Below are positions 2,766-18,000 of a DNA stretch of 32,000 bases, piece by piece (the stretch's first letter is position 1; every line of letters begins with the position of its first letter). The translations under genes were made by a program, and so were the position numbers. Source of the DNA: an uncultured Pseudomonadota bacterium. Lineage in GTDB: Bacteria > Pseudomonadota > Alphaproteobacteria > Acetobacterales > Acetobacteraceae. The notes under the pieces were generated by a model that was not told the DNA's origin, did no database searches, and worked only from the letters and a program-made list of their open reading frames with translations. Where the stretch lies: positions 1,631,573 through 1,663,572 of the forward strand of contig CAWIZE010000002.1 of assembly GCA_963840545.1 (NCBI GenBank), in the 5' to 3' direction.

Positions 2766-2982
2766 GCGGGCGGTCCGCCCAGGGTCTCGGGGTTCCGCGC
2801 GGGCCGATCGTCGCGCCCGGGGCGCGGGTCGGGGAAAATGCCTATCGCGTGAGATGCCGGTTCGATATGGCTTCCGGTGGCCGCCCTGCCGCCTAGCGAA
2901 GCTGGGCCGCCGCGCGAACACGTGATTTCATCTTGAAAGCGCGCGCCTTGTAAGCTGAACGAACGCAGCCGGGATAGCCTTC

Positions 2983-5055
2983 GTGGAGTTCCAACAGGCG
3001 CTTGCGCTCCATCGCCAGGGCCGCATGGATGATGCCGGGCGGGCCTATGAAGAGCTGCTGCGGGCCGAGCCGGCGCATCTCGATGCGCTGATCCATCTCG
3101 GGGCGCTTCGCCTCGGCCAGGGCCGTGCGGAGGAGGCGGAGGCACTGCTGCGGCGGGCCGTCAGCACGGCGCCCGGATCGCCCGAGGCGCTCGGCAACCT
3201 CGCCGCCGCATTCCAGGCGCTGGGCCGCCACGAAGAGGCGGCCACGCAGTACGAAGCCGCGCTGGCGCTGAGGCCCGCCCTGCCGGACGCCCGCTTCGGC
3301 CTGGCCGCGTGCCTGCAGGCCTGCGGCCGGCATGAGGCGGCGCGCGCGTGCTACGAAACGATCCTCGCCGCCGAGCCCGCACACCCGGAGGCGAATTACG
3401 GGCTGGCGACGCTGCTGGCGCGGCTCGGCCGCGGCGCGGAGGCGTCCGTCCGATACCGCGCCGCCCTGGCCGCCGATCCGGACTTCGCCGAGGCAAGCTT
3501 CGGCCTCGGCACATTGCTCGCGCGCGACGGCGGGCTGGAAGAGGCCATCCTCCGCTTCCGCCAGGCGCTCGAGGTCGATCCCGACTATACCGAGGCGCGG
3601 GCGGCGCTCGGCCTCGCGCTGGCGCGGCGCGACCGGGACGAGGAGGCGATGGCGGCATTCCACGCCGTGCTCGCCTCCGACCCGGGCCATGCCGAGGCGC
3701 ATAACGGCATGGGCATGCTGCTGGAGCGCAGGCTGCGCCACGCCGAGGCGATGACGCATTACGCCGCCGTGCTGGAATCCGACCCCGGGCAGGTCCATGC
3801 CATGGCGGGCATGGCCAACGCCATGAAGAGCACCGGGCTTCATGCGGAGGCGCTGGCGCTGGCGCGCCGGGTGCTGGCGCTGCGGCCGAATTTTTCCCCG
3901 GCCGCCGCCCTGCTCGGCTCCGTCCTGGCGGAGATGGGCGAGATGGAAGAGGCGCTGGCGGAGTGCCGCCGCGCCGTCGCGCTGGCGCCCGACCGGCCGG
4001 ACTCGCTCTACCAGCTGGCGCTGCTGGCCAAGGTGCAGCCCGGCGACGGCACGCTGGAGGCGCTGGAAGCGGCGCTGCCGGCCGCGGAAAAATTCACCGC
4101 GCGCGAGCAATGCCTGCTCCATTTCGCCCTGGCCAAGGCGTACGACGATATCGGCGCGCGCGAGCAGGGTTTTTCCCATCTGCTGCGCGGCAACGAAATC
4201 AAGCGGTCGCAGACGCAATACGACGAGGCGGCCGTGCTGGGCGGCATGGCGCGCCTTGCCGAGATCTTCACGCCGGGGCTGCTGGCGGCGCGGCGGGGGC
4301 TCGGCGATCCGTCTTCGCTGCCGGTCTTCATCGTCGGCATGCCGCGCTCCGGCACCACGCTCATCGAGCAGGTCCTCGCCAGCCACCAAGCGGTGCATGG
4401 CGCCGGCGAGCGGACCGAGCTCACGCAGGCGGTCGTGCGCCTGAACGCCGAACGCCTGGGCGCCGCCGCGTTCCCCGATTCCGTCTGGACGCTTTCGGGC
4501 GAGGCGCTGCGCCGGATGGGCGCGGAGCATGTCGCGGCGCTGAGGGCGCTCGCCCCGGATGCGCTGCGCATCACCGACAAGATGCCCGGCAATTTCTTCT
4601 ATGTCGGATTGGTCCGCCTGATCCTGCCGAACGCGCGCATCATCCATGTCCGGCGCGACCCGGTCGATACCTGTCTCTCGTGCTTTTCCAAGCTGTTCAC
4701 CGGCATCCAGCCATTCGCCTACGATCTCGCGGAGCTCGGCCGCTACTATCGCGGCTATCAGCGGCTGATGGCGCATTGGCGGGAGGTCCTGCCGCCCGAG
4801 ATCCTGCTGGAGGTGGAGTACGAGGCCCTGGTGGAGGATTTCGCGCCGCAGGCGCGCCGCATCGTCGCCCATTGCGGCTTGGCATGGGACCCGGCATGCC
4901 TGGATTTCTACCACACGTCGCGGCCGGTGCGCACCGCGAGCATGGTCCAGGTGCGTCAGCCGATCTATCGCAGCTCGATCGGGCGATGGCGCCCGGATGC
5001 CGCGCTGCTGCGCCCCCTGCTCGACGGGCTGGCGGGCTCTGCTAGCTCCGGTTGA
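2983..5055 (+). CDS. TPR-repeat protein fused to a C-terminal sulfotransferase domain
   Basis: GTG start at 2983. About 400 aa of repeated TPR units (AE..YR.AL...P....A...LG). C-terminus has the PAPS-binding-like loop FIVGMPRSGTTLIEQVL and the tail RQPIYRSSIGRWR typical of TPR-sulfotransferases. Confidence 0.85.
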   Translation: MEFQQALALHRQGRMDDAGRAYEELLRAEPAHLDALIHLGALRLGQGRAEEAEALLRRAVSTAPGSPEALGNLAAAFQALGRHEEAATQYEAALALRPALPDARFGLAACLQACGRHEAARACYETILAAEPAHPEANYGLATLLARLGRGAEASVRYRAALAADPDFAEASFGLGTLLARDGGLEEAILRFRQALEVDPDYTEARAALGLALARRDRDEEAMAAFHAVLASDPGHAEAHNGMGMLLERRLRHAEAMTHYAAVLESDPGQVHAMAGMANAMKSTGLHAEALALARRVLALRPNFSPAAALLGSVLAEMGEMEEALAECRRAVALAPDRPDSLYQLALLAKVQPGDGTLEALEAALPAAEKFTAREQCLLHFALAKAYDDIGAREQGFSHLLRGNEIKRSQTQYDEAAVLGGMARLAEIFTPGLLAARRGLGDPSSLPVFIVGMPRSGTTLIEQVLASHQAVHGAGERTELTQAVVRLNAERLGAAAFPDSVWTLSGEALRRMGAEHVAALRALAPDALRITDKMPGNFFYVGLVRLILPNARIIHVRRDPVDTCLSCFSKLFTGIQPFAYDLAELGRYYRGYQRLMAHWREVLPPEILLEVEYEALVEDFAPQARRIVAHCGLAWDPACLDFYHTSRPVRTASMVQVRQPIYRSSIGRWRPDAALLRPLLDGLAGSASSG

Positions 5056-5905
5056 CCCGGGCGGGCTCGGCCAGCGCCTGCTCCCCCGCCGGGTCGCGGA
5101 GCGGATAGAGCAACTGCCCGACGAGCGAGGCGGGGAGCCGGGTATCGGTGCCGTAGGCGGCGGGCCATTCCGTGGGCAGATGATAGGTGCCGAAGATCCG
5201 GTCCATCCAGGGCAGCATCGAGGCGAAATTGCGGTCCCGGAACTGCGAACGGGTGTGATGCCAATGATGGAAGCCCGGCGTCGTGATCAGCCATTCCAGC
5301 GGGCCGAGGCGCCAGCGCACGTTGGCATGGATGAAGAAGCCCCAGACCGGGACCGCCAGCATGACGAGCGTGACGATCAGCGTGCCGCGCACGCTCTGCG
5401 GAGCGCCCAGGCCGAGGACGTAGATCGGGACCAGGCCGCACAGGCGGATGAACGCACTGTCGATCGGATGGGCGCGCGCGCTGATCAGGAAATAGACATC
5501 CTCCGGGCCGTGGTGCAGCGCATGGAAGCGCCACAGGAAGGGGATTTTGTGCGCCCAGCGATGGCCCCAATAGAAGCCAAGATCGCCGACGACGAACGCG
5601 CCAAGGGCGCGCAGCCATATCGGCCAGGCGGCGATCGCGGCATGCAGGCGCCACGGCACGAAGCGGTACGCGACGTAGGCCGCGATGGAGAGCGGAACCG
5701 CGAGCAGCAGTTGCGGCACAAGCCCCGTGATGAAGAAGAAACCGAGATCGCCGAGGACGGACTTGCGGATGACCTTCCGCTCATGGAGCGCGAAGAGATG
5801 CTCCAGCGGCAGGAAGATGACGGAGAGGATCAGCAGCCAGACGCAAAGCCTGAGCACGCTCAGGAGGATCGCGGCCAGGTGCTGGTGGTGGATGAATGCA
5901 AGCAA
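5042..5905 (-). CDS. fatty acid hydroxylase / sterol desaturase family membrane protein
   Basis: Histidine boxes HRWAH, HALHH and HHWHH in a polytopic hydrophobic protein. TTG start at 5905, so the start is uncertain. Its 3' end overlaps the convergent TPR gene by 14 bp. Confidence 0.8.
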   Translation of the reverse strand: MLAFIHHQHLAAILLSVLRLCVWLLILSVIFLPLEHLFALHERKVIRKSVLGDLGFFFITGLVPQLLLAVPLSIAAYVAYRFVPWRLHAAIAAWPIWLRALGAFVVGDLGFYWGHRWAHKIPFLWRFHALHHGPEDVYFLISARAHPIDSAFIRLCGLVPIYVLGLGAPQSVRGTLIVTLVMLAVPVWGFFIHANVRWRLGPLEWLITTPGFHHWHHTRSQFRDRNFASMLPWMDRIFGTYHLPTEWPAAYGTDTRLPASLVGQLLYPLRDPAGEQALAEPARVNRS

Positions 5906-5976
5906 GGGACTGTCCTGGTTGGGTCGCCCGCTTCCCGCGCCGGAGCCTCATCCGGGCGCCTCGGCTTGCTTGCCGA

Positions 5977-6831
5977 TCAGAGCGATGCGGACGTATTTTT
6001 GCGGCGGCGGCGGGCGAATGCCCCCATGCCCAGAAGGCCGATGCCGAGCAGCGTCAGGCTTGCCGGCTCCGGCACCGGCGCCCCCAGGCCGGGCGGGGAG
6101 TTGACGCCGCCGAGGAACGCGATCGGCGGAAGATTGACGGTGCTGCCGTCGTCGCCGTAGGCGAGGAAGCTCAGCAGGTCGGTGGTGGAGTCCGCGGTCA
6201 GGGTCAGGGTGACATACTGCCAACCGACGGTGCATGTGTAACAGACCGTCATCAGCGACGATTTCACGATGGAGGCGTTCGGGTCCGCATCGGAATAGGT
6301 CTCTGTCGGGCCGTATAGCGGGTTCGTCGGGCCGCCGCCGTTGAGAGTGAGGCCCGCCGTGCCCAGCGAGACGATCCACTGATCGGTGGTCGGCGTGTAG
6401 GCGCCGACATAGTTGTTGTAGCCAAATCCCGTCTGCTCGCTGGCGCCCTGGTAGAAGCTCAGCGTGTATTGCTGGCCAGGCGTCAGCCCTGTCACCAGGT
6501 AATTGAAGCCGCTTTCGTAGCTCGGGTTCCCGTCCGCTTCCACGTAGTTGCCGCTATAGGCTCCGACGGGATTGCCGTAGGTCTGGAGGTAGGTGGAGCT
6601 GTCGGCCTGCGCACCCGGCAGGGTTGTCGAATCGATGAAGATGAGGCCCGATCCCCCGGTCCAGCCCACCGGATCGACAGACGTGAAGCTGCCTTTCGGC
6701 GCGCTCCCCGTATAGCTGGAGAAGTTCAGGTTCGTGAGATTGGGAAGGGCCGGATCCGCCTGGGCAGCCTGGGCCGCGAGCGAGAGGCTGAGGGCAGTGG
6801 AGGCGATATAGAACGACCGGCGGAACACCAT
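5977..6831 (-). CDS. PEP-CTERM sorting-domain secreted protein
   Basis: N-terminal signal peptide (ALSLSLAAQAAQA). C-terminal VPEPASLTLLGIGLLGMGAFARRRRK is the PEP motif, a TM helix and an Arg cluster. The ATG at 6831 is preceded by GAGAAGG (6847-6841). The track's GTG at 6849 overlaps that RBS. Confidence 0.85.
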   Translation of the reverse strand: MVFRRSFYIASTALSLSLAAQAAQADPALPNLTNLNFSSYTGSAPKGSFTSVDPVGWTGGSGLIFIDSTTLPGAQADSSTYLQTYGNPVGAYSGNYVEADGNPSYESGFNYLVTGLTPGQQYTLSFYQGASEQTGFGYNNYVGAYTPTTDQWIVSLGTAGLTLNGGGPTNPLYGPTETYSDADPNASIVKSSLMTVCYTCTVGWQYVTLTLTADSTTDLLSFLAYGDDGSTVNLPPIAFLGGVNSPPGLGAPVPEPASLTLLGIGLLGMGAFARRRRKNTSASL

Positions 6832-6877
6832 GGCGCTCGACCTTCTCACAGTTGCGTGGTTGCCTGTGGCAGCTCAC

Positions 6878-6892
6878 GCAAATGGCGTGCCA
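6878..6892 (-). promoter_or_regulatory. candidate sigma-54 (-24/-12) promoter for the PEP-CTERM gene
   Basis: Minus strand reads cTGGCACgccatTTGCg, i.e. TGGCAC-N5-TTGC, which matches the RpoN consensus spacing. It lies about 47 nt upstream of the ATG at 6831. Confidence 0.6.
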
Positions 6893-7271
6893 GAGGGGGA
6901 AAGAGTTTCTTTTCAAGATGTTGGCCTTCGTCCGGAGATGGCCTGGCTGCGGATGTGTAAGATTCCTCGAACAGATCCGGGCGAAGGCCGGTCAGGCAGG
7001 CCGACATTGGACGCAGGCTGACATTGGAGGTCTGGTCCCGATCGGGATTGCGCCGAGGCCCGCGACGACCGGGCGGCCAACAGCTTTATCCAACGATCGA
7101 TCGGGCGAGCGATGGGGCTTGGCCCGGCTGCGACACGGGAAGCGGGATGGATGAGCGCGAGCGAGCCCGTCCGGCTCCGCGAGGAGAGCCGTGTTGCGCG
7201 GCTGAAGCGGGGGAGGGATGATGGCGCGAAGCGGCGCGGATCGTTGCCGATCGCAGCGGGAAGGGGGGATC

Positions 7272-8030
7272 ATGGCCTATGAAGGGATGATCGCGGAGAC
7301 CAACGCGATCGACGGCGATAGGAACGAGCCGATCTCGGCTTACGTTGCGCGGCCGCTGGGGCCGGGGCCGTTTCCCGGGATCGTGCTCTTTCACCACGCG
7401 CCCGGCTGGGACGAGTGGTACCGCGAGACGACGCGCAAATTCGCCCATCACGGGTACGCGGCGATCAGCCACAACCTCTATCACCGCGCGGGCGAGGGTA
7501 AAGCCGACGATGTGGCGGCCAAGGTGCGGGCCGAGGGCGGCGTTTCCGATGCGCAGGTGATCGGCGACGGCGAAGGCGCGGTGGCGTGGCTCCGCGCGCA
7601 GCCCTGGCTCAACGGCAAGGTCGGCGTGTTCGGCACCTGCTCGGGCGGTCGGCATGCGTTTCTGTTCGCGTGCCGCACGAAAGGCATCGACGCCTGTTGC
7701 GAGCTCTGGGGCGGGCGGGTGGTGATGAGCCGGGAGGAGCTGACGCCGAAGCAGCCGGTGGCGCCGATAGAATTCACGAAGGATCTCTGCTGCCCGCTGC
7801 TCGGCCTGTTCGGCAACGAGGACCGCGCGCCGACGCCGGAGCAGGTGGACCAGCACGAGGCCGAGCTGAAGAGATGCGGGAAGCAATACGAATTTCATAG
7901 ATATGACGGCGCCGGGCACGGGTTTTTCTATTACGACCGGCCGATGTACCGGGTCGCGCAGGCGCTGGACGGCTGGCAGAAGGTATTTTCGTTTTTGCAC
8001 CGGCATCTGCACAAGCCCGCGGCGGCGTGA
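7272..8030 (+). CDS. dienelactone hydrolase family protein
   Basis: ATG at 7272 after GGAAGGGGGG. PGIVLFHHAPGWDEW...VGVFGTCSGGRHAF...YDGAGHGFF matches the DLH-family alpha/beta-hydrolase layout. Confidence 0.85.
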   Translation: MAYEGMIAETNAIDGDRNEPISAYVARPLGPGPFPGIVLFHHAPGWDEWYRETTRKFAHHGYAAISHNLYHRAGEGKADDVAAKVRAEGGVSDAQVIGDGEGAVAWLRAQPWLNGKVGVFGTCSGGRHAFLFACRTKGIDACCELWGGRVVMSREELTPKQPVAPIEFTKDLCCPLLGLFGNEDRAPTPEQVDQHEAELKRCGKQYEFHRYDGAGHGFFYYDRPMYRVAQALDGWQKVFSFLHRHLHKPAAA

Positions 8031-8037
8031 CGCGGGC

Positions 8038-8379
8038 ATGTGCACCTCGATCGTCGAGATCGTAAGCGCGGAGGGCGCGGGGAAGGGCGGGGACGGGTGG
8101 TTCGGGCTGACGCACGCGGTGGTGTCCTACGACCATCCGCACCACGCGCTGCTGGAGGAGGCGATCACCATCGATTTCGTGAATGCGGCGCTGGGGCCGG
8201 GGGCGCGGGCGGCGGTGGAGCTGACGCTGGAGGCGGCGAAGGCGCTGAGCGGGGCGCTGGCGCGGGCGATCGCGGCGGCGGAGCGCGAGGAGGGTGCGCG
8301 AGCGGGGCCGCAACACGAAAATCATCGGCCTCAGCGTCGATCCGATCGCCCGGCACGCGAGCTGGGCCAAGGACATTGA
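8038..8379 (+). CDS. small DUF6295-like protein; its 3' end appears to run on into the alternate frame of a truncated peroxiredoxin
   Basis: MCTSIVEIVSAEGAGKGGDGWFGLTHAVVSYDHPHHALLEEAITIDFVNAALGPGARAAVELTLEAAKAL... matches my recollection of the DUF6295 pattern (MCT...GWF...DHP.H...DFVN...GPGARVAVEL). The last 25 or so codons (RAGPQHENHRPQRR...) look like non-native read-through. Confidence 0.5.
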   Translation: MCTSIVEIVSAEGAGKGGDGWFGLTHAVVSYDHPHHALLEEAITIDFVNAALGPGARAAVELTLEAAKALSGALARAIAAAEREEGARAGPQHENHRPQRRSDRPARELGQGH

Positions 8380-8788
8380 AGAGACGCAGGGGCACGCAGT
8401 CACCTACCCGATGATCGGCGACACCGAATTGAAGGTGGCTAAGCTCTACGACATGCTGCCGGAAGGCGCCGGCGGCACGGCGGAGGGCCGAACCGCCGCG
8501 AACAACGCGACCGTGCGTTCGGTGTTCGTGATCGGCTCCGACAAGAAGATCAAGGCGACGCTCAGCTATCCCATGAGCAGCGGGCGCAATTTCGACGAGG
8601 TGCTGCGACTGCTCGATTCCTGCCAGCTCACCGCGAGACATTCGGTCGCGACGCCGGTGAACTGGAAGATGGGCGAGGGCGTCATCATTCCGCCCGCCGT
8701 CTCGGACGAGCAGGCGAAGCAGAAATTCCCCAATGGCTGGAAAACCGTGAAACCCTATCTGCGCGTGGTCGCCCAGCCGCCCGGCTGA
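8294..8788 (+). pseudogene. 5'-truncated 1-Cys (Prx6-like) peroxiredoxin; lacks the N-terminal segment of about 55 aa that carries the peroxidatic Cys
   Basis: NTKIIGLSVDPIARHASWAKDIEETQGHAVTYPMIGDTELKVAKLYDML...NFDEVLRLLDSCQLT...ATPVNWKMGEGVIIPP is the middle and C-terminus of a Prx6-type enzyme. No FTPVCTTE segment exists upstream in any frame; the upstream DNA encodes the DUF6295-like ORF instead. Confidence 0.75.
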
Positions 8789-8877
8789 ACGCTTCGCGCG
8801 CGAACTCCGGCGCGACGGAGGAGGCGCAGCACCATCCGAGCGGGTTACGGCAAGCGGAGCCGGCGACCTGCCGCTTG

Positions 8878-9165
8878 TCAGTCGCGGGAAGAGGACAGTC
8901 CCGCGAGAAGCGGCACGTACGCGGCGCGCCTGCGGGATACGAACTCCGTGAAGAGCCGAACGCGCCTCGTCTTGCGCGTCTCGCCCTGCGTGAGGAGCCA
9001 GAGCGTTCCGTGCATGCGCAGGGCGGTGCCCGGCACCCTCACCAGCAGCGGGTCTGGATCTCCGACGAAGCAAGGCAGCGTCGTCATCCCGAGCCCCTGC
9101 CGCACCGCGACGATCTGCGCCCCGGCGGCCGTGGTCCTGAACGGAACCTCAGCGGTGGGAACCTC
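8878..9165 (-). pseudogene. LysR-family regulator, C-terminal fragment only
   Basis: The tail of ORF 8878..9582 reads ...FRTTAAGAQIVAVRQGLGMTTLPCFVGDPDPLLVRVPGT...LWLLTQGETRKTRRVRLFTEFV, typical of a LysR substrate-binding-domain C-terminus. No HTH or N-terminal half is present. The boundary with the transketolase part is approximate. Confidence 0.6.
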
Positions 9166-9864
9166 ACGTCGCGCGCCGGCGATTTCTTCCTCGCCCGGCG
9201 CATCGCCATGGGCCTTCTGGGTGCCGGCCTTGGTCGGGAAGCCGAAGCCGATGATGGTCTTGCAGGCGATCATGGAGGGCTGGTCGGTCACCGCGCGGGC
9301 GGCGGCGACGGCGTCGCGGATCGCGTCCGTGTCGTGGCCGTCGATCTCCTGCACATGCCAGCCGGAGGCGCGGAAGCGCTCGAGCTCGTGGTCCGAAACC
9401 GCGAGGCTGGTCGGGCCGTCGATGGAGATGGAATGGTTGTCCCAGAAGGCGATGAGGCGGCCGAGCTTGAAGTGGCCCGCCAGGGAAATCGCTTCCTGGC
9501 TGATGCCTTCCATGAGGCAGCCATCGCCCATGAAGACGTAGGTGAAATGTTTGCAGAGATCGTCCCCGAACCTGGCGTTCACGATGCGCTCGGCAAGCGT
9601 GAAGCCGACCGAGTTCGCGATGCCCTGGCCGAGCGGGTCGGCGGTCGTCTCGATGCCGTCGGCATGCCCCTATTCCGGATGGCCGGCGGTCCTGCTGTCG
9701 ATCTGGCGGAACCGCTCCAGCTCGTCCTGGGTCATGTCCTTGACGCCGGTCGGGTAGAGCAGGCTGTAGAGCAGCATCGAGCCGTGGCCGTTCGACAGCA
9801 GGAAGCGGTCGCGGTCGAACCAATGCGGCCCGGCCGCATCGAGGGCCGGGCCGCGGCGGGCCGG
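9166..9864 (-). pseudogene. transketolase internal fragment (roughly residues 45-300) with an in-frame TAG
   Basis: Minus strand reads ...[136 protein letters not shown]...IGFGFPTKAGTQKAHG. The stop (TAG, plus-strand cta at 9670-9672) replaces the conserved Tyr of GHPEYG. The N-terminus and the C-terminal half are absent. Confidence 0.8.
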
Positions 9865-10332
9865 TCAGGATCGGTCGATCCGGCCGGAGTAGCAGCCCCG
9901 CCTGGCATTGTGGGCGTGGATGTAGCTCACGTCGGGGTTGGCGAAGAACCGGGCGATCAGCGGCTCGATGGCCGCGCCCTCGGTGACGTCCGCATCGAGC
10001 ATCATGCCGTCCGCGTCAAAGGCGCGGAGCGAGAGCAGCCGGACGCGCATGACCTCCGGCACCTGGTCGAGCTGGTCGAAGGTTTTCGTGGCGCCCTCGC
10101 GGACGAAGATGGCGTGCGCGGCGCGATAGGGCGTGGCCGCCGGCTGGCAGGTGTGGTTGAGCAGAATCAGCGTCTCGCCCGGCTCGGCATCGCGCATCTC
10201 GATCCGGCAGGGGAAGCCCGGCTTCGCGTCGGCGATGTAGCGTTTCGCGGTGTGCGCGGCGAGCTCGGCATCGGACAATCCGAACAGGTGCCGGAACGGC
10301 TCGGGCGAGAGCCCGGTGATACGAAAGGTCAA
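9865..10332 (-). CDS. DUF1203 domain-containing protein
   Basis: TTG at 10332 preceded by AAGGAGGG. (M)TFRITGLSPEPFRHLFGLSDAELAAHTAKRYIADAKPGFPCRIEMRDAEPGETLILLNH... matches the DUF1203 family pattern. Confidence 0.75.
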   Translation of the reverse strand: MTFRITGLSPEPFRHLFGLSDAELAAHTAKRYIADAKPGFPCRIEMRDAEPGETLILLNHTCQPAATPYRAAHAIFVREGATKTFDQLDQVPEVMRVRLLSLRAFDADGMMLDADVTEGAAIEPLIARFFANPDVSYIHAHNARRGCYSGRIDRS

Positions 10333-10474
10333 AGGTCCCTCCTTGGTTTGGGGGCGACACCTGAGCAGGACCGCGGCGCGCCCGCCATCCGTTTGTTGCT
10401 GCCGAATTCGGCCGGGGCGCGCGGCGTGCGCCTCCATACCTGCGGCGGGAGGGCGCCGCAGGGACGGGGTCGGT

Positions 10475-11396
10475 TCAGGCGCGGTTGTCGTATTTGCTGT
10501 GGCCTGCGAAATAGCTCGGCCGGTCGAGATCGGGAATGAGGCCGGGCTGTGTCGGGCGCCATCCCAGCCGTTCCTGCGTTTGCGCGCTCGAAGCCGGGCA
10601 GTCGATGCTCACGAAGAACCCGAGAAAGCCGAAATGCCCGGCCGCCTCCGCGGCGGACTTGCCGACGACCGGCAGGTTCAGGCGGCGGCCGATGACGCCG
10701 GCGATGTCGCGGAACGGAACGCCCTCGTCGGCGACCCCGTGATAGCGGGCTCCCGCGGACCCCTTCTCGAGCGCCAGCCTGTAGAGATGGGCAGCATCGA
10801 GCCGGTGGACCGCGGGCCAGCGGTTGAGCCCGTCGCCCACATATGCCGAGACGCCCTTTTCACGCGCGATGCCGATGAGGCGCGGAACGAAGCCGTGATC
10901 GCCGTCACCATGGACGGACGGCGCGAGGCGCAGCAACGACGCGCGGACCCCGCGTGCGGCCAGCGCGGCGGTTGCCACTTCCGAAGCGACGCGGGGAAGC
11001 GCATGGGAGTCGGAACCTAGGCACGATGTCTTCGATGGCGAGGCGGCCTGGCGTAAGGAGGGCGGTCCCGGAGGTGACGATCAAGGGACGGTCGGAGCCT
11101 TCGAGGACGGCGCCGAGCGTCTCGATGGCGCGCCGGTCCATCTCGCAGTTTTCCGCGAACTTCGAAAAATCGTGGTTGAAGGCCGTGTGGATCACGCCAT
11201 CCGACATGGCGGCCCCGCCGCGCAGGCTCTCGAGATCTTCGAGATCGCCGCGATGCGCCGCCGCGCCACCGGCGATGAGAGACTGGGCGCCCGCATCCGA
11301 GCGAGCGAGACCGAGGACCCGATGGCCCGCATTGACGAGCTCCTGAACAATGGCAGAACCGATAAAGCCTGTCGCACCGGTGACGAAGACACGCAT
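10475..11396 (-). pseudogene. NAD(P)-dependent SDR/epimerase-family oxidoreductase, split by a frameshift
   Basis: The N-terminal half ([33 protein letters not shown]...) sits in ORF 10905..11480. The C-terminal half ([46 protein letters not shown]...) sits in ORF 10475..10978 in another frame. The two frames meet around 10980-11025. Confidence 0.7.
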
Positions 11397-11523
11397 CGCG
11401 ACTGATCCCTTGCGCCGTTCGATGGCCGCATGTGCGGCCCTGTGATTGTCGAGATAGGTGATTGAGGGAATACGATCCATGCTGTAAAGTCCGTATTATC
11501 GTCGCAATCGTCCGGGATGGCCC

Positions 11524-12498
11524 ATGGACCCGCTCTCAGATGTGCTGTCGCTGCTGAGACCGCGCAGCTATATGTCCGGTGGCTTCGATGCGGGTGGAGA
11601 ATGGTCGATCCGGTTCCCCCGGCATGAAGGAATCAAATGCTACGCTGTGGTTTCCGGGCGGTGCTGGCTCTCCGTCGAGGGCGTTCCCGACGCGGTGGGC
11701 CTGAAGACCGGGGATTGCTTCCTGCTGCCGAGGGGGCGGCCTTTCCGGCTTGCCAGCGACATGGCTTTGCCGCCGGTCGACGCAAGCAGGCTGTTTTCGC
11801 CGGCGCGGAATGGCGGCATCGCCGCGTGCAACGGCGGGGGCGATTTCTTTCTTGCAGGCGGGCACTTCGCCCTTGCCGGCAATCATGCCGGCATCCTGTT
11901 GGGGGTGCTGCCGCCGATCGTGCATATCCGCAAAGAATCGGACAAGGCGGCGCTGCGGTGGTCCCTGGAGCGGATGATGCGGGAGCTGCGCGAGCGGCAG
12001 CCCGGCGGCTTTCTGGTCGCGGAGCACCTTGCCCACATGATGCTGGTTCTGGCGCTGCGACTGCATCTGGCGGCAGGGTCGAGGGGTGGCGTCGGGTGGC
12101 TCTTCGCCCTGGCGGATAGGCAGATGAGCGCGGCGATCGGCGCCATGCACGACGACCCGGCGCAAGGCTGGACATTGCAGGTGCTGGCGGAGCGTGTCGG
12201 GATGTCGCGATCGAGCTTCGCCCTGAAATTCAAGCAGACGGTTGGGACATCGCCCATGGAATACCTGACGCGCTGGCGTATGCTGCTGGCCGGGGACAGG
12301 CTGGCGAATTCCGGCGATCCCGTCTCCGTCATTGCCCGCTCGCTCGGCTACTGCTCGGAGAGCGCCTTCAGCACGGCCTTCAAGAGGGTCATGGGCTGTT
12401 CGCCGCGGGACTATCGCCGTGGCCGGGCCGCGGCTTCTCCTTCGCCTGGCGAGGGGGAAGCCGCCCGCGCCGATCGGCTCGATCCTGTCGCGGGTTGA
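11524..12498 (+). CDS. AraC-family transcriptional regulator with N-terminal cupin-type sensor domain
   Basis: MDPLSDVLSLLRPRSYMSGGFDAGGEWSIRF... is the AraC-type cupin N-terminus. The C-terminus carries two HTH units (WTLQVLAERVGMSRSSFALKFKQTVGTSPMEYLTRWRM...IARSLGYCSESAFSTAFKRVMGCSPRDY). Confidence 0.9.
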   Translation: MDPLSDVLSLLRPRSYMSGGFDAGGEWSIRFPRHEGIKCYAVVSGRCWLSVEGVPDAVGLKTGDCFLLPRGRPFRLASDMALPPVDASRLFSPARNGGIAACNGGGDFFLAGGHFALAGNHAGILLGVLPPIVHIRKESDKAALRWSLERMMRELRERQPGGFLVAEHLAHMMLVLALRLHLAAGSRGGVGWLFALADRQMSAAIGAMHDDPAQGWTLQVLAERVGMSRSSFALKFKQTVGTSPMEYLTRWRMLLAGDRLANSGDPVSVIARSLGYCSESAFSTAFKRVMGCSPRDYRRGRAAASPSPGEGEAARADRLDPVAG

Positions 12499-12552
12499 TC
12501 TGCGCGGTTGGCGGCTGCCCGGAGCGACGGGATGGGGAACGGCTTCTTTTTG

Positions 12553-12611
12553 TTGTGCCGCGCAGCGCCCAAGGGTCCAAGTATGGGGGGGTCCAGGGGC
12601 CCAGCCCCTGG
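12553..12611. repeat. REP-like GC-rich element, copy A (ttgtgccgcgcagcgc ... gggggggtccaggggcccagcccctgg), ending in an 8-bp-stem hairpin
   Basis: Hairpin ccaggggc-cca-gcccctgg at 12593-12611, 3 nt beyond the stop of the 12615..14585 gene. Both modules recur in reverse complement at 19057-19102. Confidence 0.75.
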
Positions 12612-12614
12612 CGG

Positions 12615-14585
12615 TTAGCCGGGTTCCGGGGTTTTCGTGCGGAAGAGCAGGGACCAGCCCTGGACGTCCTGGAGCATGGCGAGCGCGAGGCCGTGGAGGG
12701 TCGCGCCGAGGGCGGATGAGGCGAGGGGGCGGGAGGTGTCGATCGCCTCGAGCTCCTGCGTCGTCTCCGCGAGCACGCGCAGCATCTGTTGGGACTGAAG
12801 GTGGAGGGGGTCGAACTCGGCATAGGCGCGCAGGCTGACGAAGCCGGCCGAGAGCGCGGCGAGCGTCGTGCAGGCGAAGCCGAGCCAGCGCTCCGCGCCG
12901 GCGCCTTCGGCGGCGTGGAGCCCGCCGTGGAACAGGGCGTGGGCCATGAAGAAAAGCTTGACGAACACGAGCACCAGGGTCGCGGCGAAAGCAAGCTCGC
13001 CAAGGCCGATGAGCCGGCGCGCGGCGACGCGGCTGCGGCGCGCGCGGTCCTGGTGATAGCTGGTCTGCGCGGCGATCGTCTCCGCGCCGATCGCGCGGGC
13101 GCGCGGGACGTGCCCGGCGATCGTGCCGTGCGGCAGCTCCGCCCCGCGCATCGCCGCGCTGACATACCAGGCGACCCAGGCGTCGCGCGGCGGGCCGTGG
13201 GGCTGCGTCTCCGGATGGCGGGCGAGGTCGGCCACCTGGGCGAGCGGCAGCGACCAGCCGAGCCGGGCGAGCATGCGCTGCTTGCGGCACAGCTCGGCGA
13301 GCAGCCGGTAGGCGATCCATCGTTCGTGCCAGCGGCCGAACTCGCTGGCGACGACGATGCAGAAGATGGAGACCAGGGCTGCGAACTCGACGATGGTGGC
13401 AGGCAGGCCGAAGGCCAGGGGCGCGGCCAGCGCCAGGCCCATCGCCGAGACGGTGAGGGCGGCGAGCGCGATGATCAGCACGTAGGAGGAGCGGTAGCGG
13501 TCGGCGTATTTCCGCCCGTGGCGGTCCGCTTCTTCGTGCATCGCGGCCCAGGCGCGCTCGACCGCGTCGGCGGGTTCGGGTGGCTGCTCGGGCGGTGCAG
13601 GCGGCGCAGGCGGGGCGGGCGGGGCGGCGTGGGCCGGCGCGATGCGGTCGAGCGCGCGGGAATAGACGCGCCAGAGGCGCGGCCGCACGCTCTCCTCGCC
13701 TTCCGCGAAATAGTCGGAGAGCGGGTCGCGGCGATGGCCGAGCCGCGCGGCGATCCAGTGCACGGCGGCGCCGACCCAGGTGTGGTGGTGGGGCCCGCCG
13801 GGTGCCGGCGGCGCGATCGTGGCGCGGAGCAGCGCGGCGAGTGCCGCCTCCGCCGCCCGGCCGGCCGGGGCGGAGGCGCGGTGCGCGAGGGACGTCGGGC
13901 CGAGCAGCAGGCGCGGCGGCTGGGCGGCGGCGGGATCGATCCACCACACCGGGACATGGCTGCGCACCGCGTAATGGACGGTCTCCCCGGTGCCGCCGGG
14001 CTTGCCGTGGGCGCCATCCCAGACCGCGATCAGGAGGTCCGCGTTGCGGACGACGAAGCGGCCGACGGCGCGAAAGGACGCCTCCGCGTCCTCGTCGCGC
14101 GCGCCGTCGAGGGCGAGCACCGCGGGGGCGTCGGATTCGGTGCGCGCGGCGGCGAGCAGGGCGCGGAACGGCGCGGGATCTCTGTCGAAGGTTTTTTCGT
14201 AGTCCGCGGCAGGGAAAGGCAGCGGCGCTTCGAGCCGGAGGCCGGCGGCGAGCGCGGCCTCGGCGGCGATGCGGTCGGAGCCCTCGGCGAGCGGGGAGAA
14301 GAGGCGGATGAGCGGCGGGTCGGGCGCGTAGGCCGCCCGGACGGAAGGTTCGGCGGCGAGTGCCGCGATCGTCGTGCGCGCGCGCTGCATGACGGCGGCG
14401 AGCGCATCGGCAAGGGCGGGGAGCGCCGCGGGATCGAGCTTGTTGGGCCGCGCGCCGGTGACCCCGAGGCGGAAGGCGAGCCGGGGCCGGAGGGGGCCGA
14501 GGAAAGGGGGGCCAAGGAAAGGGGGGCCAAGGGAAGGGGGCCCGAGGGAAGGCGGCCCAAGGGAGGATGGTGGCGGAGGCGTCAC
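12615..14585 (-). CDS. SLOG-like (YpsA/DprA/LOG-type Rossmannoid) N-terminal domain fused to two SLATT/DUF4231-like 2TM modules
   Basis: GTG start overlaps the upstream stop (GTGA). N-terminal domain: LGVTGARPNKL...SPLAEGSDRIAAEAALAAG...ADLLIAVWDGAHGKPGGTGETVHYAV. First membrane module: YADRYRSSYVLIIALAALTVSAMGLALAAP...ATIVEFAALVSIFCIVVASEFGRWHERWIAYRLLAE. Second module: QTSYHQDRARRSRVAARRLIGLGELAFAATLVLVFV...WLGFACTTLAALSAGFVSLRAYAEF. Domain names come from motif recognition only. Confidence 0.65.
   Translation of the reverse strand: MTPPPPSSLGPPSLGPPSLGPPFLGPPFLGPLRPRLAFRLGVTGARPNKLDPAALPALADALAAVMQRARTTIAALAAEPSVRAAYAPDPPLIRLFSPLAEGSDRIAAEAALAAGLRLEAPLPFPAADYEKTFDRDPAPFRALLAAARTESDAPAVLALDGARDEDAEASFRAVGRFVVRNADLLIAVWDGAHGKPGGTGETVHYAVRSHVPVWWIDPAAAQPPRLLLGPTSLAHRASAPAGRAAEAALAALLRATIAPPAPGGPHHHTWVGAAVHWIAARLGHRRDPLSDYFAEGEESVRPRLWRVYSRALDRIAPAHAAPPAPPAPPAPPEQPPEPADAVERAWAAMHEEADRHGRKYADRYRSSYVLIIALAALTVSAMGLALAAPLAFGLPATIVEFAALVSIFCIVVASEFGRWHERWIAYRLLAELCRKQRMLARLGWSLPLAQVADLARHPETQPHGPPRDAWVAWYVSAAMRGAELPHGTIAGHVPRARAIGAETIAAQTSYHQDRARRSRVAARRLIGLGELAFAATLVLVFVKLFFMAHALFHGGLHAAEGAGAERWLGFACTTLAALSAGFVSLRAYAEFDPLHLQSQQMLRVLAETTQELEAIDTSRPLASSALGATLHGLALAMLQDVQGWSLLFRTKTPEPG
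14492..14566. repeat. 15-bp in-frame tandem repeat, 5 units, encoding (S/F)LGPP x5 at the N-terminus of the SLOG-SLATT protein
   Basis: Units 14492-14506, 14507-14521, 14522-14536, 14537-14551 and 14552-14566 (gggggccRaggRaag and variants). No alternative start codon lies downstream of the repeat, so it must be translated. Confidence 0.9.
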
Positions 14586-16591
14586 GCGGGCGCCTCATTC
14601 AGCCAGGCCTCGACCGCCCAGGCTTCGACCGCAGCAGCGGCGCGGGGGAATTGCTCGGCGATATGCTGGAGATCGCGCGGCGCGGCGCGCGCGAGGCCGC
14701 GGGCGTGGATGGCGAGCGCGGCGGTCGCGGCCAGCGCCTCCGCCGCCCGCCAGGCGGGCTCGTCGGCGATGTCGATCTCGATCAGCGCGATCTCCTCGGG
14801 AGCGATGGGCGTGGCGGGTGGATGGGCGGGATCCATGCACACGAGGCGGCGGACGGCGCGGCCGGCCTCGCCGGCGATGCGGGGGATTTTCGCGACCGCG
14901 CCGAGATTGTAGGCGCGCGCGGGCGGGGGCAGCGCCTCCCAGTCCACGAGCTGAGGATGCGTCTTTGCGGCCTCGTCGCGCACCGGGCCGTGACGCCATC
15001 CCGCGGCGATGAGGTCGAGGCGCCAGCGATGGTGCTCGGCGCGCGCCATCCGCTCGATCTCGGCCTCCCGCAGGGTGGCGCTGGGCCCAGGGCCGGCGGC
15101 GAGGCGGAGGCCGGCGTGGCCGAGCTTGACCGGAATATGGTCGGCGAAGGCGCGGTTGGCGCGGCGGAAGCGCTCGGCGAGCTGCTCCCAGGGCACGGCG
15201 GCGGGCGCGTCCCGATCCGGGTTCGAGGCCAGGAAATCCTCGTGCACCGCGCGGGCCATGCGGTCCGCCTCGGCCTCGAAGAGCTGCGCCGGCCCGACCA
15301 GGGAGGCGAGGTCGCCGAACCCGCCGAGCCGCTCGGGGCAGAGCGGGCGCGCCGCCATCCGCCCGAGGAGCTCGCTGAGGCCGCGCTCCTGGCGGGTGCG
15401 GACATGGATCGGGGTTGCGAAGCGGCGCTGGCGATCGAGCGCGTCGCGGAGGCCGAAGGCGGCCTCGAGCGCGGCATCGTCGCGGCCGAGCGCGACGATC
15501 ACCGCGGCGGGCGGGCGGGCGGCGAGGTCGGCCTCGATCGCCTGCCACTCGGTGGTCCGGCCCCATTCGTCCGGCGGGCCGAACCAGGCCGGGCGGATCT
15601 CGAGATCGAGGCATTGGCGGAGATGCCGCCCCCAGGGCGACGCGGCGAGCACGGCGGCGCGCGCCTCGGCGTCGCGGTCATAGGCGAGGATGTCGACGCG
15701 CGTGTCCGGCAGCGCGAAGGTCGAGAGGGCGGCGTGGCGGAGGATCGCGACGCCGAGATCGCCGAGGCCGGCGAGGACGATGCGCGGGCGGGCGCCGGCG
15801 GTGCGGACGAAGCCCGCCCCGCCGAGCAGCCGGCGCGCCGAGACCTCCTCGGTGCGGAGCGGATGGACGAGCAGGCCGGGGTCGAAGATTCCCGTGGGCG
15901 GCACCGCCATCGCGTCGATCAGCCAGGGGGCGCGGATCTCGGGGCGCGCGAGGAGGGGCGCCGCGCCGCCGGCGGCCGCGGTTCGCCGGGCGGTGCGCGC
16001 GCCGGCGGCCATCACGATGTCGAGGTTGGTGGCGTCCGAGCCGGTCGTCGCGACCAGCGCGCGCGCCCGGGTGATCCCGGCATGCTCGAGCGTCTCGGTG
16101 CGGGTCGCGTCCCCGCTCAGCACCGGCACGCCGAGGCGATCGCAGAGCGCGATCGCCGCGGCCGCATCCTCGCGCGTGATCGCGACGGCCTTGAGCCCGG
16201 CGCGCTTGAGGCCGCGGACGACCTCGATCCCGGTTTCGCCGAGGCCGCAGACCACCACGTGCCCGCGCATGGCCTGGGCGCGCGCGAGCTGCGCGTCGTG
16301 GCGGAGGTTGTGCACGAAGAGCGAGATGCTGCCCATCAGCCCGGCCAGCACCAGGACCACGAACATCAGGGACTGCGCCGCCACGAGCAGGAACGGAGCA
16401 TGGCCGAAGGGGAAGGATTGCTCGCCGCGGACGAGGAAAATCGTGTCGATCAGCGCGGGCTCGAGCCCCTGTCCGCAATAGGGGTGGCCGTGGCAGGTCA
16501 TGAAGCCGACCAGGCCGAGCGCGGTTGCGAGCAGGGCGAGCAGGGCGACCGGCGCCCATTGCCCGAGCCGGTAGATGCGGAGGCTCAGCAC
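14582..16591 (-). CDS. membrane protein: 2 TM helices + two Rossmann (TrkA-N/RCK-like) domains + RyR domain
   Basis: GxGxxG motifs: HVVVCGLGETGIEVVRGLKRAGLKAVAITRED and RIVLAGLGDLGVAILRHA...DILAYDRD. RyR-domain signature: IERMARAEHHRWRLDLIAAGWRHGPVRDEAAKTHPQLVDWEALPPPARAYNLGAVAKIP. The preferred start is the GTG at 16591, 17 nt after the upstream stop. The track's ATG at 16741 would overlap the upstream gene by 133 nt. Confidence 0.7.
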   Translation of the reverse strand: MLSLRIYRLGQWAPVALLALLATALGLVGFMTCHGHPYCGQGLEPALIDTIFLVRGEQSFPFGHAPFLLVAAQSLMFVVLVLAGLMGSISLFVHNLRHDAQLARAQAMRGHVVVCGLGETGIEVVRGLKRAGLKAVAITREDAAAAIALCDRLGVPVLSGDATRTETLEHAGITRARALVATTGSDATNLDIVMAAGARTARRTAAAGGAAPLLARPEIRAPWLIDAMAVPPTGIFDPGLLVHPLRTEEVSARRLLGGAGFVRTAGARPRIVLAGLGDLGVAILRHAALSTFALPDTRVDILAYDRDAEARAAVLAASPWGRHLRQCLDLEIRPAWFGPPDEWGRTTEWQAIEADLAARPPAAVIVALGRDDAALEAAFGLRDALDRQRRFATPIHVRTRQERGLSELLGRMAARPLCPERLGGFGDLASLVGPAQLFEAEADRMARAVHEDFLASNPDRDAPAAVPWEQLAERFRRANRAFADHIPVKLGHAGLRLAAGPGPSATLREAEIERMARAEHHRWRLDLIAAGWRHGPVRDEAAKTHPQLVDWEALPPPARAYNLGAVAKIPRIAGEAGRAVRRLVCMDPAHPPATPIAPEEIALIEIDIADEPAWRAAEALAATAALAIHARGLARAAPRDLQHIAEQFPRAAAAVEAWAVEAWLNEAPA

Positions 16592-16608
16592 CGACGCCCC
16601 GGCTGTCG

Positions 16609-18000
16609 CTATGGCCCGAGGATCGAGATCACGCTCGGGGCCGGCAAGGTTTTCGCCGAGGTGTTGAGTGCGAGAAGCTGGAGCACGATCTCCATCACCT
16701 CGGACGAGCGGTCGGCGCCGGAAGGATCGATCGAGATGCAATAGCGCGTGCCGTCATAGGCGACGCCGATCTCGCCCGCGATGCCGGTGCAGTCCTCCCG
16801 CACCAGGAACAGCCGGTCGGTTCCGAGCCCGGTGCCGATCTGCGGCGGCGCGAGCCTCTGGCTGACGCCGATATCGAGCTCGCCGCGCGCCAGCTCGCCG
16901 AGATAATAGATGATGCCCTCGACCGAGCGGACGGTGAAATTGACCTGCAACGTCACGGTCCGGGTCGTGCCGTCGGCAGTGCGGACCAGGGCGGGAAAAC
17001 AATTCGCCGGCTCGGCATAGGCGTGGCGCTCGGTGGCCTTCATCCGGAGATAGGGCGACGCGCCGCAGCGCTCGGCGGCGGCCTCCACGGCGCCGGCGGA
17101 GGCGCCAAGCGGCGGGCCGATGATCGTATCGCCGGGCGGCAGCACGCCGAGCGCGATGAGCGTCCGGCTCGCCGCCGGCAGGGCCTGGAGATCGGGATCG
17201 ATGCAGAACCGGCTCTCCCGGGTCGTCTGCTGGAGGCGGAAATATTCCGTCACGCCGCGGCGGGCGAGCTCGGCCTTCTCGCTCGCCGTGAGATCGGGGT
17301 CGGAGGTCGTGGTGAAGCGCTTGAGCGCGGCGCCCTCGGCCAGTGGCGCCAGCGCGCGCAGGCTCGCGATATCCGCCGCGGGAATCGGCGGGCCGACATT
17401 GGTGATGGTCTTGACCACCTCGGAGCTGAGGCCAAGATCGGCGAGCGCGCCGACCACCTGCTCGAAATTGCTGTAATGGTCGCCGAAATAGTTATTGTAG
17501 AAGGCCAGCGGCGTATCGTCGTTCAAGGCGATGTCGATGCGGCCGATCACCAGGGTGAGCAGCAACGCCTTCGGGAAGCCCTGCTCGAGGTAATAGTCGA
17601 TGCTGGTGATCGGGATCGGAGAGAGGATGCCCTGGTAGAATTCCTGCGTGTCGAGATTGGCGACGCTGAAGGCCTGGGTGCCGCTGAGCGTGGCCGCCGG
17701 GCTTGCCGTGTCGGCGTGGGGGAAGGTGGCCGGGCTCGGGCTGAAGGGCAAACTGAAGGCGGCGGTACCGGAGAGCGAGGTCTGGCCCGTGACCTGCGTG
17801 AAATCGGTGAACTGCAGCGGCTCGCGATAGGCGGCGCGCATCACGTTGAGCATCAGCACGCTCTCCTTGATGTCCTCCGCCTGCTGGTTGTAGGCGATCG
17901 CGCGCGGAGCGAAGTAGTCGACGACCTCGCAGCCGGTGAGCGCGAGCAGCGCAGGCAGCAGAAGCAGGGCGATTGGCCCCCATCGCCTTCTCTTCCCCAT
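16609..18000 (-). CDS. lipoprotein of unknown function (no family recognised)
   Basis: MGKRRRWGPIALLLLPALLALTGC is a basic n-region, a hydrophobic core and an L-T-G-C lipobox. The mature part has 5 further Cys residues and no TM segment. It is the first gene of the three-gene operon. Confidence 0.75.
   Translation of the reverse strand: MGKRRRWGPIALLLLPALLALTGCEVVDYFAPRAIAYNQQAEDIKESVLMLNVMRAAYREPLQFTDFTQVTGQTSLSGTAAFSLPFSPSPATFPHADTASPAATLSGTQAFSVANLDTQEFYQGILSPIPITSIDYYLEQGFPKALLLTLVIGRIDIALNDDTPLAFYNNYFGDHYSNFEQVVGALADLGLSSEVVKTITNVGPPIPAADIASLRALAPLAEGAALKRFTTTSDPDLTASEKAELARRGVTEYFRLQQTTRESRFCIDPDLQALPAASRTLIALGVLPPGDTIIGPPLGASAGAVEAAAERCGASPYLRMKATERHAYAEPANCFPALVRTADGTTRTVTLQVNFTVRSVEGIIYYLGELARGELDIGVSQRLAPPQIGTGLGTDRLFLVREDCTGIAGEIGVAYDGTRYCISIDPSGADRSSEVMEIVLQLLALNTSAKTLPAPSVISILGP

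Follow-up and report, generated by a model that had tools for sequence, protein, structure and literature searches.

Two-transmembrane (2TM) K+ channels gated by RCK domains, such as MthK and GsuK of Geobacter sulfurreducens (PDB 4GX0/4GX5), are built of a first transmembrane helix (TM1), a pore helix, a second transmembrane helix (TM2) and an RCK domain, which in GsuK is present as two tandem copies per subunit. We analysed a 32-kb stretch of contig CAWIZE010000002.1 from a soil metagenome (a metagenome-assembled genome of an uncultured member of the Acetobacteraceae); this whole stretch of 32,000 nucleotides is called here the window. It contains a gene whose product has the same order of elements, and which we call the RCK-RyR gene. 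Unlike GsuK and MthK, the window protein has neither a TVGYG filter nor a match to Ion_trans_2, it carries in addition a RyR domain and an alpha/beta domain, and the genes found with it are those of SLATT, SLOG and TIR proteins, not genes of ion homeostasis. The TrkA/KtrA gating rings also consist of tandem Rossmann RCK domains with GxGxxG motifs, and the window protein matches their folds (4J9V, 4G65); they are, however, soluble regulators of a separate pore protein, TrkH, whereas in the window protein the RCK pair, a 2TM module and the RyR domain belong to one polypeptide.

The RyR domain (PF02026) is shared with Repeat12 of the animal ryanodine receptors and with the phage protein RyDEP (DyoEdafos gp78), which cleaves the 2′ and 3′ isomers of cyclic ADP-ribose (2′/3′cADPR), while other phage homologues of RyDEP bind these molecules tightly without cleavage (PMC13232231, a 2026 preprint). 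The catalytic dyad of RyDEP, H75 and D117, is needed for cleavage (a D117N mutant was made), and W78 and H100 contact the ligand (PMC13232231). The equivalents of H75, W78 and H100 are conserved in the window protein, whereas the residue corresponding to Asp117 is Asn. RyDEP is a soluble phage protein of 138 amino acids; the window protein, in contrast, is cellular, membrane-bound and multidomain, and its role is presumably in host signalling rather than in phage evasion.

The genetic context resembles the Thoeris systems. In type VII Thoeris the TIR protein makes canonical cADPR, and a response to it has been proposed for the SLATT effector ThsH; the SLOG domain of ThsA binds 3′cADPR (10.64898/2025.12.03.692087). 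In the text consulted, Yirmiya et al. also name a type X Thoeris, whose effector is called an ‘ion channel’ with no family given, and list ‘SLOG and 4TM’ among untested candidates (10.64898/2025.12.03.692087); RyR and TrkA are not mentioned there. In the literature searched, no cellular RCK-RyR protein was described as part of a TIR, SLOG or SLATT system. Relatives of the window cassette have in common with type VII (ThsB TIR plus ThsH) a SLATT, and SLOG, membrane effector beside ThsB-like TIR genes. The differences are that the systems described in the text consulted consist of two genes (TIR and effector) with no RyR-domain or RCK partner reported, and that the window has no TIR gene.

The novelty probably lies in a RyR-bearing partner, derived from a channel and so far undescribed, in Thoeris-like signalling, and the case is clearer at the level of the family than at the TIR-less window locus. 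Our preferred reading, for which we judge the chances to be about even, is that the RCK-RyR protein is the nucleotide-sensing membrane component of a Thoeris-like module. Cellular proteins combining TrkA_N and RyR form a large orphan family without assigned function, for which a role beside SLOG-SLATT and TIR nucleotide signalling can now be tested. Such a role would tie the TIR immunity of bacteria to a long-standing debate, that on how cADPR acts on the ryanodine receptors of animals.

Association of RCK-RyR genes with SLATT, SLOG and TIR genes

In the window the stop codon of the RCK-RyR gene (TGA, 14584-14582) shares bases with the start codon of the following gene (GTG, 14585-14583) in a GTGA overlap. 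This GTG is the sole possible start, no other start codon being present ahead of the conserved domain. A previous reading of this DNA, made from the sequence only, had proposed translational coupling to a SLOG-SLATT protein, and the proposal holds for the overlap and for both parts of the partner. DUF4231/SLATT matches were obtained in 26 of the 32 members of the partner family. Foldseek with the N-terminal domain of the partner model (predicted local distance difference test score, pLDDT, 88.8) returned ShosA, DprA, TM1055 and the Moco carrier protein with a probability near 1, and these we take to belong to the DprA/LOG-type (SLOG) fold class. The N-terminal domain is thus provisionally assigned to the SLOG fold, from the fold search only: SLOG-type Pfam families did not match it in any of the 32 members, and a PDB profile search with this domain found nothing. 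A signal-sensing domain fused to a toxic module is a feature of Thoeris effectors, and the partner combines a SLOG fold with DUF4231/SLATT.

The association was seen from both sides. Among 79 genome loci of the SLOG-SLATT family an RCK-RyR gene adjoined in 17. The RCK-RyR gene lies upstream of the SLOG-SLATT gene in Acetobacteraceae and directly downstream of it in ten Acidobacteriaceae/Terracidiphilus loci; adjacency was also found in Bradyrhizobium and Ilumatobacteraceae, and the gene order differs among the groups. Many of the 80 metagenome loci collected for the RCK-RyR family had SLATT-family and/or TIR genes. Neighbours were counted within 4 kb in a set of 36 non-redundant RCK-RyR loci with at least 3 kb on each side. 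A SLATT-family gene was present at 23 of these well-flanked loci, a TIR gene at 15, at least one of the two at 26, and a relative of the lipoprotein gene that precedes the RCK-RyR gene in the window at nine. In another set of relatives a TIR gene was found at 15 of 23 loci, which puts TIR genes beside 42-65% of relatives. On the family tree SLATT and TIR contexts are scattered over many clades, and context-free loci are confined to a few.

The arrangement is most compact in L165 and L090, where a SLATT gene, the RCK-RyR gene and a gene for a TIR_2/ThsB_TIR protein form a tight co-directional operon. In L006, RCK-RyR is accompanied by a TIR-PG_binding protein and by DUF4231; L002 carries SLOG-SLATT, the lipoprotein gene in two pieces and RCK-RyR, with patatin and two TIR genes adjoining; in L005 a DUF4062-NACHT gene is the neighbour. 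TIR_2 and nSTAND1 genes flank the cassette in L001, L007, L009, L021, L087 and L089 and are absent at the window locus. Several relatives have the SLATT gene without a nearby TIR gene. The 758-aa protein P0202 is a full RCK-RyR protein with a C-terminal extension that matches the SLOG profile of the partner (E 4e-22), and so represents a gene fusion, the sole clear one. Homologues of the lipoprotein gene adjoin RCK-RyR genes in 16 of 87 loci, in several clades.

RCK-RyR and SLOG-SLATT form a conserved module, to which the clade of the window adds a predicted periplasmic lipoprotein and many relatives add ThsB-like TIR genes in or beside the operon. The functional link of RCK-RyR to SLATT/SLOG is well supported, and a link to TIR signalling is supported at the family level.

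Domain composition of the RCK-RyR protein

The Pfam profile TrkA_N matched residues 112-198 (E 2.6e-16, 60.4 bits, cutoff 23.8) and the RyR profile scored 40.6 bits (cutoff 27.4; position and E-value in Table 1). Both matched all 26 members of the family alignment. NCBIfam gave sub-threshold matches only (TrkA, Kef and Kch, to the first Rossmann domain and far under the cutoffs).

The AlphaFold2 model, calculated from the 26-sequence alignment, had a pLDDT of 85.9 and a predicted template modelling (pTM) score of 0.81. It consists of TM1, a short helix, TM2 with a linker, two Rossmann domains, a helical region and a small alpha/beta domain. The sequence-only reading had described TM1, a loop of about 30 residues, TM2, a GxGxxG Rossmann domain, a second GxGxxG domain and a RyR domain; model and translation agree with this order, the loop having about 34 residues, and the profiles that it had suggested for a check, TrkA_N (PF02254) and RyR (PF02026), were both significant. 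In the Foldseek search against PDB the full-length chains of GsuK ranked first (E 1e-10, about 610 aligned columns), followed by the TrkA gating ring, full-length MthK and Repeat12 of human RyR3 (170-190 aligned columns).

The first RCK/TrkA_N domain, with its GxGxxG motif, follows the inner helix directly, as in channels of the MthK/GsuK type. The second has the motif GLGDLG and a conserved Asp305, and its equivalent in the relative P0032 matches Pfam TrkA_N. Because the glycine motif is kept in both Rossmann domains, and the Asp in the second, nucleotide binding by both is plausible judging from these motifs. With a threshold of E<=1e-30 the wider RCK-RyR family comprises no fewer than 5,213 clusters (50% identity). 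Its members are mostly of about 580-610 amino acids and lack the C-terminal alpha/beta domain of the window clade, most representatives stopping near profile position 580.

The RyR domain and its predicted ligand site

The RyR core is about 50% identical in sequence to repeat 1 of RyR1 Repeat12 (E 1e-16 against the RyR1 repeats in PDB). By BLASTP, residues 72-104 of RyDEP aligned without gaps to residues 517-549 of the window protein (52% identity, E 3e-8). Within this segment H75 corresponds to His520, W78 to Trp523 and H100 to His545, and in the 26 aligned homologues these residues are conserved in 26, 25 and 23 sequences, respectively. D117 corresponds to Asn562 by ungapped extension 13 residues beyond the BLAST segment, so that this equivalence is partly extrapolated; the position is Asn in 21 and Asp in 4 of the 26 homologues. 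A count of the D117 position at a fixed offset in the wider family was dropped as unreliable because of indels, and the aligned 26 sequences were used instead.

As the catalytic Asp of RyDEP is replaced by Asn562, we read the domain as a binder and not as a hydrolase. From the pattern of residues it is probably not a glycosidase, and looks like a domain that binds ligands of the cADPR/ADPR class. Action of a RyR-type domain on cADPR isomers was shown only recently and only in phage proteins, to which the RCK-RyR protein would be a host-side counterpart. A tblastn search of phages with the RyR core gave two weak phage matches only.

Origin of the transmembrane module

The segment between TM1 and TM2 of the RCK-RyR protein reads ...ALIDTIFLVRGEQSFPFG... 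and contains no filter of the TVGYG type. Ion_trans_2 (PF07885) did not match any of the 26 members of the first family alignment at E<=1. The earlier statement that the protein lacks this filter and is not a canonical K+ channel was thus confirmed. Despite the lost filter, the topology of transmembrane helix, short helix and transmembrane helix is retained in the AlphaFold2 model.

The wider family contains members with a genuine pore domain. In L129 (9680-11434) and L130, Ion_trans_2 matched residues 16-93 (E 2.3e-16), TrkA_N residues 110-198 and RyR residues 512-579, and these proteins are collinear with the window protein residue for residue; L129 keeps TVGYG. The representative P0291 reads ...WWTLVTMTTIGYGDIFP..., with TIGYG at the position aligned to the window loop. 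When the family is aligned, three motifs stand opposite the K+ pore helix and filter: the family consensus d.lY.tlqLF.lesg, the segment ALIDTIFLVRGEQSFPFG of the window protein, and a conserved PWqLevARf with which TM2 starts. Members with a canonical pore (L129, P0291) are rare. The 2TM module was therefore probably derived from a K+ channel pore with loss of the filter. In the sequence-only reading the layout was said to mimic RCK-gated channels: the likeness stands, and with GsuK as the best fold match and true Ion_trans_2 domains at the same position in two members, homology rather than mimicry is its probable cause. We conclude that the RCK-RyR protein is probably an inner-membrane protein descended from RCK-gated 2TM K+ channels of the GsuK type, with a degenerated filter, and with the RyR domain and the small domain at its cytoplasmic end. 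The family spans true K+ channels and filterless relatives, a natural series for studying the re-use of a channel scaffold.

The pair of cysteines pointed out previously in the loop was confirmed, and several clades share it in the form C-x(2-6)-C. The simplest reading is a structural disulfide in the predicted periplasmic loop; a redox- or metal-sensing role is speculation. In the flanks of L129 and L130, which are short on one side, there was no SLATT or TIR gene.

Proposed role and alternatives

The preferred reading, in which the protein senses nucleotides as the membrane component of a Thoeris-like module, can be put as a series of steps. A TIR enzyme, encoded next door in the relatives and possibly elsewhere in the genome of the window, would make an ADP-ribose-derived signal upon infection or stress. 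The RyR domain, perhaps with the RCK domains, would bind the TIR-made signal, probably without cleavage, and the SLOG domain of the partner would bind the same or a related signal. The RCK ring would relay binding to the 2TM module, leading to a leak not selective for K+ or to control of the SLATT pore, and the membrane would be depolarised or permeabilised, as in abortive infection. For the RCK-RyR protein we infer the identity of the ligand, the gating, the conduction and the role in defence.

In its most specific form the proposal makes the host RCK-RyR protein a channel gated by an ADP-ribose signal: the RyR domain would be the receptor for a TIR-made messenger of the cADPR type, the RCK ring would pass its binding on to the pore derived from the K+ channel, and RCK-RyR and SLOG-SLATT would act as an effector pair with two receptors. 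We put this forward tentatively and consider it, taken as a whole, unlikely. If true, the coupling of cADPR to Repeat12 of the ryanodine receptors in animals would have a prokaryotic counterpart, from which it possibly evolved, and the whole family, with its thousands of clusters, would join TIR-based immunity.

A number of results weigh against the scheme. Eight of the 36 well-flanked loci had none of SLATT, TIR or lipoprotein genes within 4 kb, and one context-free clade adjoins transporter and binding-protein genes. No TIR gene was detected within the 32-kb window, nor was there a TIR remnant at the position where L001 carries TIR_2. None of the three cassette proteins matched a PADLOC model. 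The search for sequencing runs returned soil-metagenome runs only, of a kind guessed to be DNA, none of them marked as RNA. By sequence, the homology of the N-terminus to a K+ pore depends on collinearity and on a profile of the filterless N-termini, which aligned in register with the L129 pore in a weak match (10.6 bits). The residue equivalent to D117 was located in part by extrapolation. An Arg-Gly after the pore-like helix is conserved; as the loop sequence VRGEQSFPFG contains this Arg-Gly, conduction is doubtful and the 2TM part may be a mere anchor. It is unlikely that this loop serves as a cation filter. Having no TIR gene nearby, the window is also a weaker test case than the relatives L165 or L001.

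Another explanation, which we rate as improbable, is that the protein is a membrane-tethered buffer or off-switch. The RyR domain would sequester the TIR signal (and cleave it in the Asp-bearing relatives), setting a threshold and preventing self-killing by the SLOG-SLATT pore, while the 2TM part would only position the protein by its partner. The phage RyR-domain proteins are indeed sponges or glycosidases acting on 2′/3′cADPR (PMC13232231), the ligand-binding His, Trp and His are kept here while the catalytic Asp has become Asn, four of the 26 aligned relatives retain Asp, and the degenerate, Arg-bearing filter speaks against conduction. A buffer, on the other hand, has no need of two conserved nucleotide-binding RCK domains and a pore-like module maintained across thousands of clusters, some family members are real channels, and it would be expensive to buffer a signal mole for mole with an integral membrane protein.

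About as improbable, in our view, is a housekeeping function as an RCK-gated channel of altered selectivity or a regulator of transport, in which the protein would sense NAD(H) or ATP/ADP by its Rossmann and RyR domains and play no part in conflict, the SLATT and TIR neighbours being incidental or specific to certain clades. The size of the family and its true K+ channels would fit such a function, as would the loci devoid of SLATT, TIR and lipoprotein genes, the location of L004, flanked by cobW and by the gene of a periplasmic binding protein, the binding of NAD+ and ADP by GsuK (according to PDB entry titles) and the lack of a TIR gene in the window. It had been suggested beforehand that homologues in unrelated, variable contexts would indicate housekeeping; the eight context-free loci go in this direction, and the recurrence of SLATT or TIR genes at 26 of 36 loci, in many separate clades and phyla, goes against it. 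Also difficult to reconcile with housekeeping are the overlap of stop and start codons with the SLOG-SLATT gene in the window, the fusion to the SLOG domain of the partner in P0202, and the nSTAND, patatin and DUF4062-NACHT neighbours in relatives, which are typical of defence islands.

The least probable explanation, that the cassette of the window is a decaying or orphaned remnant without function since the loss of its TIR/STAND partners, can draw on the replacement of the flanking TIR_2 and nSTAND1 genes by an SDR gene and on the gene fragments in the adjacent ~9.9 kb (transketolase/LysR chimera, epimerase fragment), but the three cassette genes are intact with a strong coding signature, their ratios of non-synonymous to synonymous substitution (dN/dS) relative to L001 are 0.25-0.34 (0.20 in 3HCDH, a housekeeping gene on the flank), the start/stop coupling is preserved, and several other relatives likewise have SLATT without a nearby TIR gene.

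Genes and features of the cassette

Because the GC content of the window is about 70%, coding frames were chosen by the GC signature of the third codon position. The open reading frame (ORF) 14582-16753 of the minus strand has GC values of 0.80/0.55/0.90 at codon positions 1/2/3, a typical coding pattern for a high-GC genome. Within it the RCK-RyR gene starts with the GTG at 16591, 17 nt past the stop of the lipoprotein gene, and the resulting N-terminus, MLSLRIYRLGQW..., agrees with the homologues. A sequence identical to the 669-aa product is present in the protein collection as P0005. Two further ORFs, 14567-16744 on the plus strand and 11536-14598 on the minus strand, were rejected as compositional shadows with Arg/Pro/Gly-rich products. 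The features of the cassette are listed in Table 1.

Table 1. Features of the RCK-RyR cassette in the window (AF2, AlphaFold2; residues are those of the RCK-RyR protein)
Feature	Position	Strand	Evidence or remark
Whole RCK-RyR gene, 669 aa, 2TM-RCK-RCK-RyR	14582..16591	-	Stop TGA 14584-14582; coding signature, translation, N-termini of homologues
TM1, residues ~12-32; Arg5 and Arg8 N-terminal to it, on the presumed cytoplasmic side	16496..16558	-	AF2 helix 7-32; Gly29 invariant
Predicted periplasmic loop, residues 33-66: Cys pair, pore-helix-like helix 43-54, degenerate ‘filter’ VRGEQSFPFG	16394..16495	-	AF2; in register with the pore of L129 and P0291
TM2 (inner-helix equivalent), residues ~67-92, helical linker to 107	16316..16393	-	AF2 helix 67-107
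RCK/TrkA_N Rossmann domain 1, residues 109-265, GLGETG at 116-121	15797..16267	-	Pfam, conservation, Foldseek (GsuK/TrkA/MthK)
RCK-like Rossmann domain 2, residues 270-425, GLGDLG at 275-280, Asp305 ending strand 2	15317..15784	-	AF2, conservation, tandem-RCK fold matches (GsuK/TrkA)
RyR/Repeat12-like helical region, residues 440-575	14867..15274	-	Pfam, PDB RyR1 repeats (E 1e-16), Foldseek RyR3 Repeat12, RyDEP BLASTP
Pfam RyR match, residues 512-567	14891-15058	-	E 3.2e-10
Small C-terminal alpha/beta domain, residues 578-658	14618..14860	-	AF2
Downstream partner: SLOG-fold N-domain and tandem SLATT (DUF4231) membrane modules	12615..14585	-	GTG start within GTGA overlap; Pfam, AF2, Foldseek
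Upstream partner: predicted lipoprotein (LALTG|C), 463 aa	16609..18000	-	Stop 17 nt ahead of RCK-RyR start

The C-terminal domain was considered as a possible SLOG domain and rejected (hhalign against the partner SLOG domain, probability 0.1%), and it stays unassigned. The extensions of about 200 aa in P0028 and P0032 have SLOG-like motifs (ADLL...W[DN]GA), and were likewise not accepted as SLOG: BLASTP was not significant and the hidden Markov model E-values were 0.005 and 0.16.

The lipoprotein had no match in Pfam, NCBIfam or the PDB sequences. Its homologues occur in L001, L002 (where the gene is split into two ORFs), L007, L009, L021, L087-L089, L104, L112, L114, L117-L120, L122 and L152. 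Relatives of it were also seen beside SLOG-SLATT genes without an RCK-RyR neighbour (L031, L071, L081, L084). Acidobacterial loci have SLOG-SLATT, RCK-RyR and then a gene for a secreted protein some 1,350 aa long (e.g. L079:14062-18114), which may be the acidobacterial counterpart of the lipoprotein of the window clade. It was found in L057, L066, L067, L072, L075, L078-L080, L082, L085, L124 and L125, and gave a weak match, under the cutoff, to a 5′-nucleotidase C-terminal domain (E 4e-4).

The window is syntenic with L001, the cassettes being 75% identical in nucleotide sequence. Between the 3HCDH and lipoprotein genes L001 has nSTAND1-Sel1 and TIR_2 genes, and the window an SDR gene only. 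Some 9.9 kb that L001 lacks (2960-12600) separate the SLATT gene of the window from a VTT/LssY_C gene. This region contains intact genes for a fatty-acid hydroxylase, a dienelactone hydrolase, a DUF1203 protein and an AraC regulator (11524-12498), and fragments: an in-frame chimera of transketolase_N and a LysR tail (8878-9669), an epimerase fragment (10475-11080) and a truncated peroxiredoxin (8249-8788). It is a variable, partly decayed region.

The SLOG-SLATT loci (L007-L085) are a broad family of TIR-linked islands. No RCK-RyR gene is present in 62 of the 79, and in 27 of these 62 a TIR gene lies no more than 10 kb away. Near SLOG-SLATT loci the architectures of TIR proteins are diverse (TIR-FGE-sulfatase, TIR-STAND and others), and patatin (8 loci) and TPR-kinase genes are recurrent neighbours.

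At the N-terminus of the SLOG-SLATT partner in the window, 15-bp repeats (14492-14566, minus strand) encode five (S/F)LGPP units, modelled with pLDDT below 50. The repeat is not shared by the homologues, which align from about residue 31, and in-frame variation of its length is possible.

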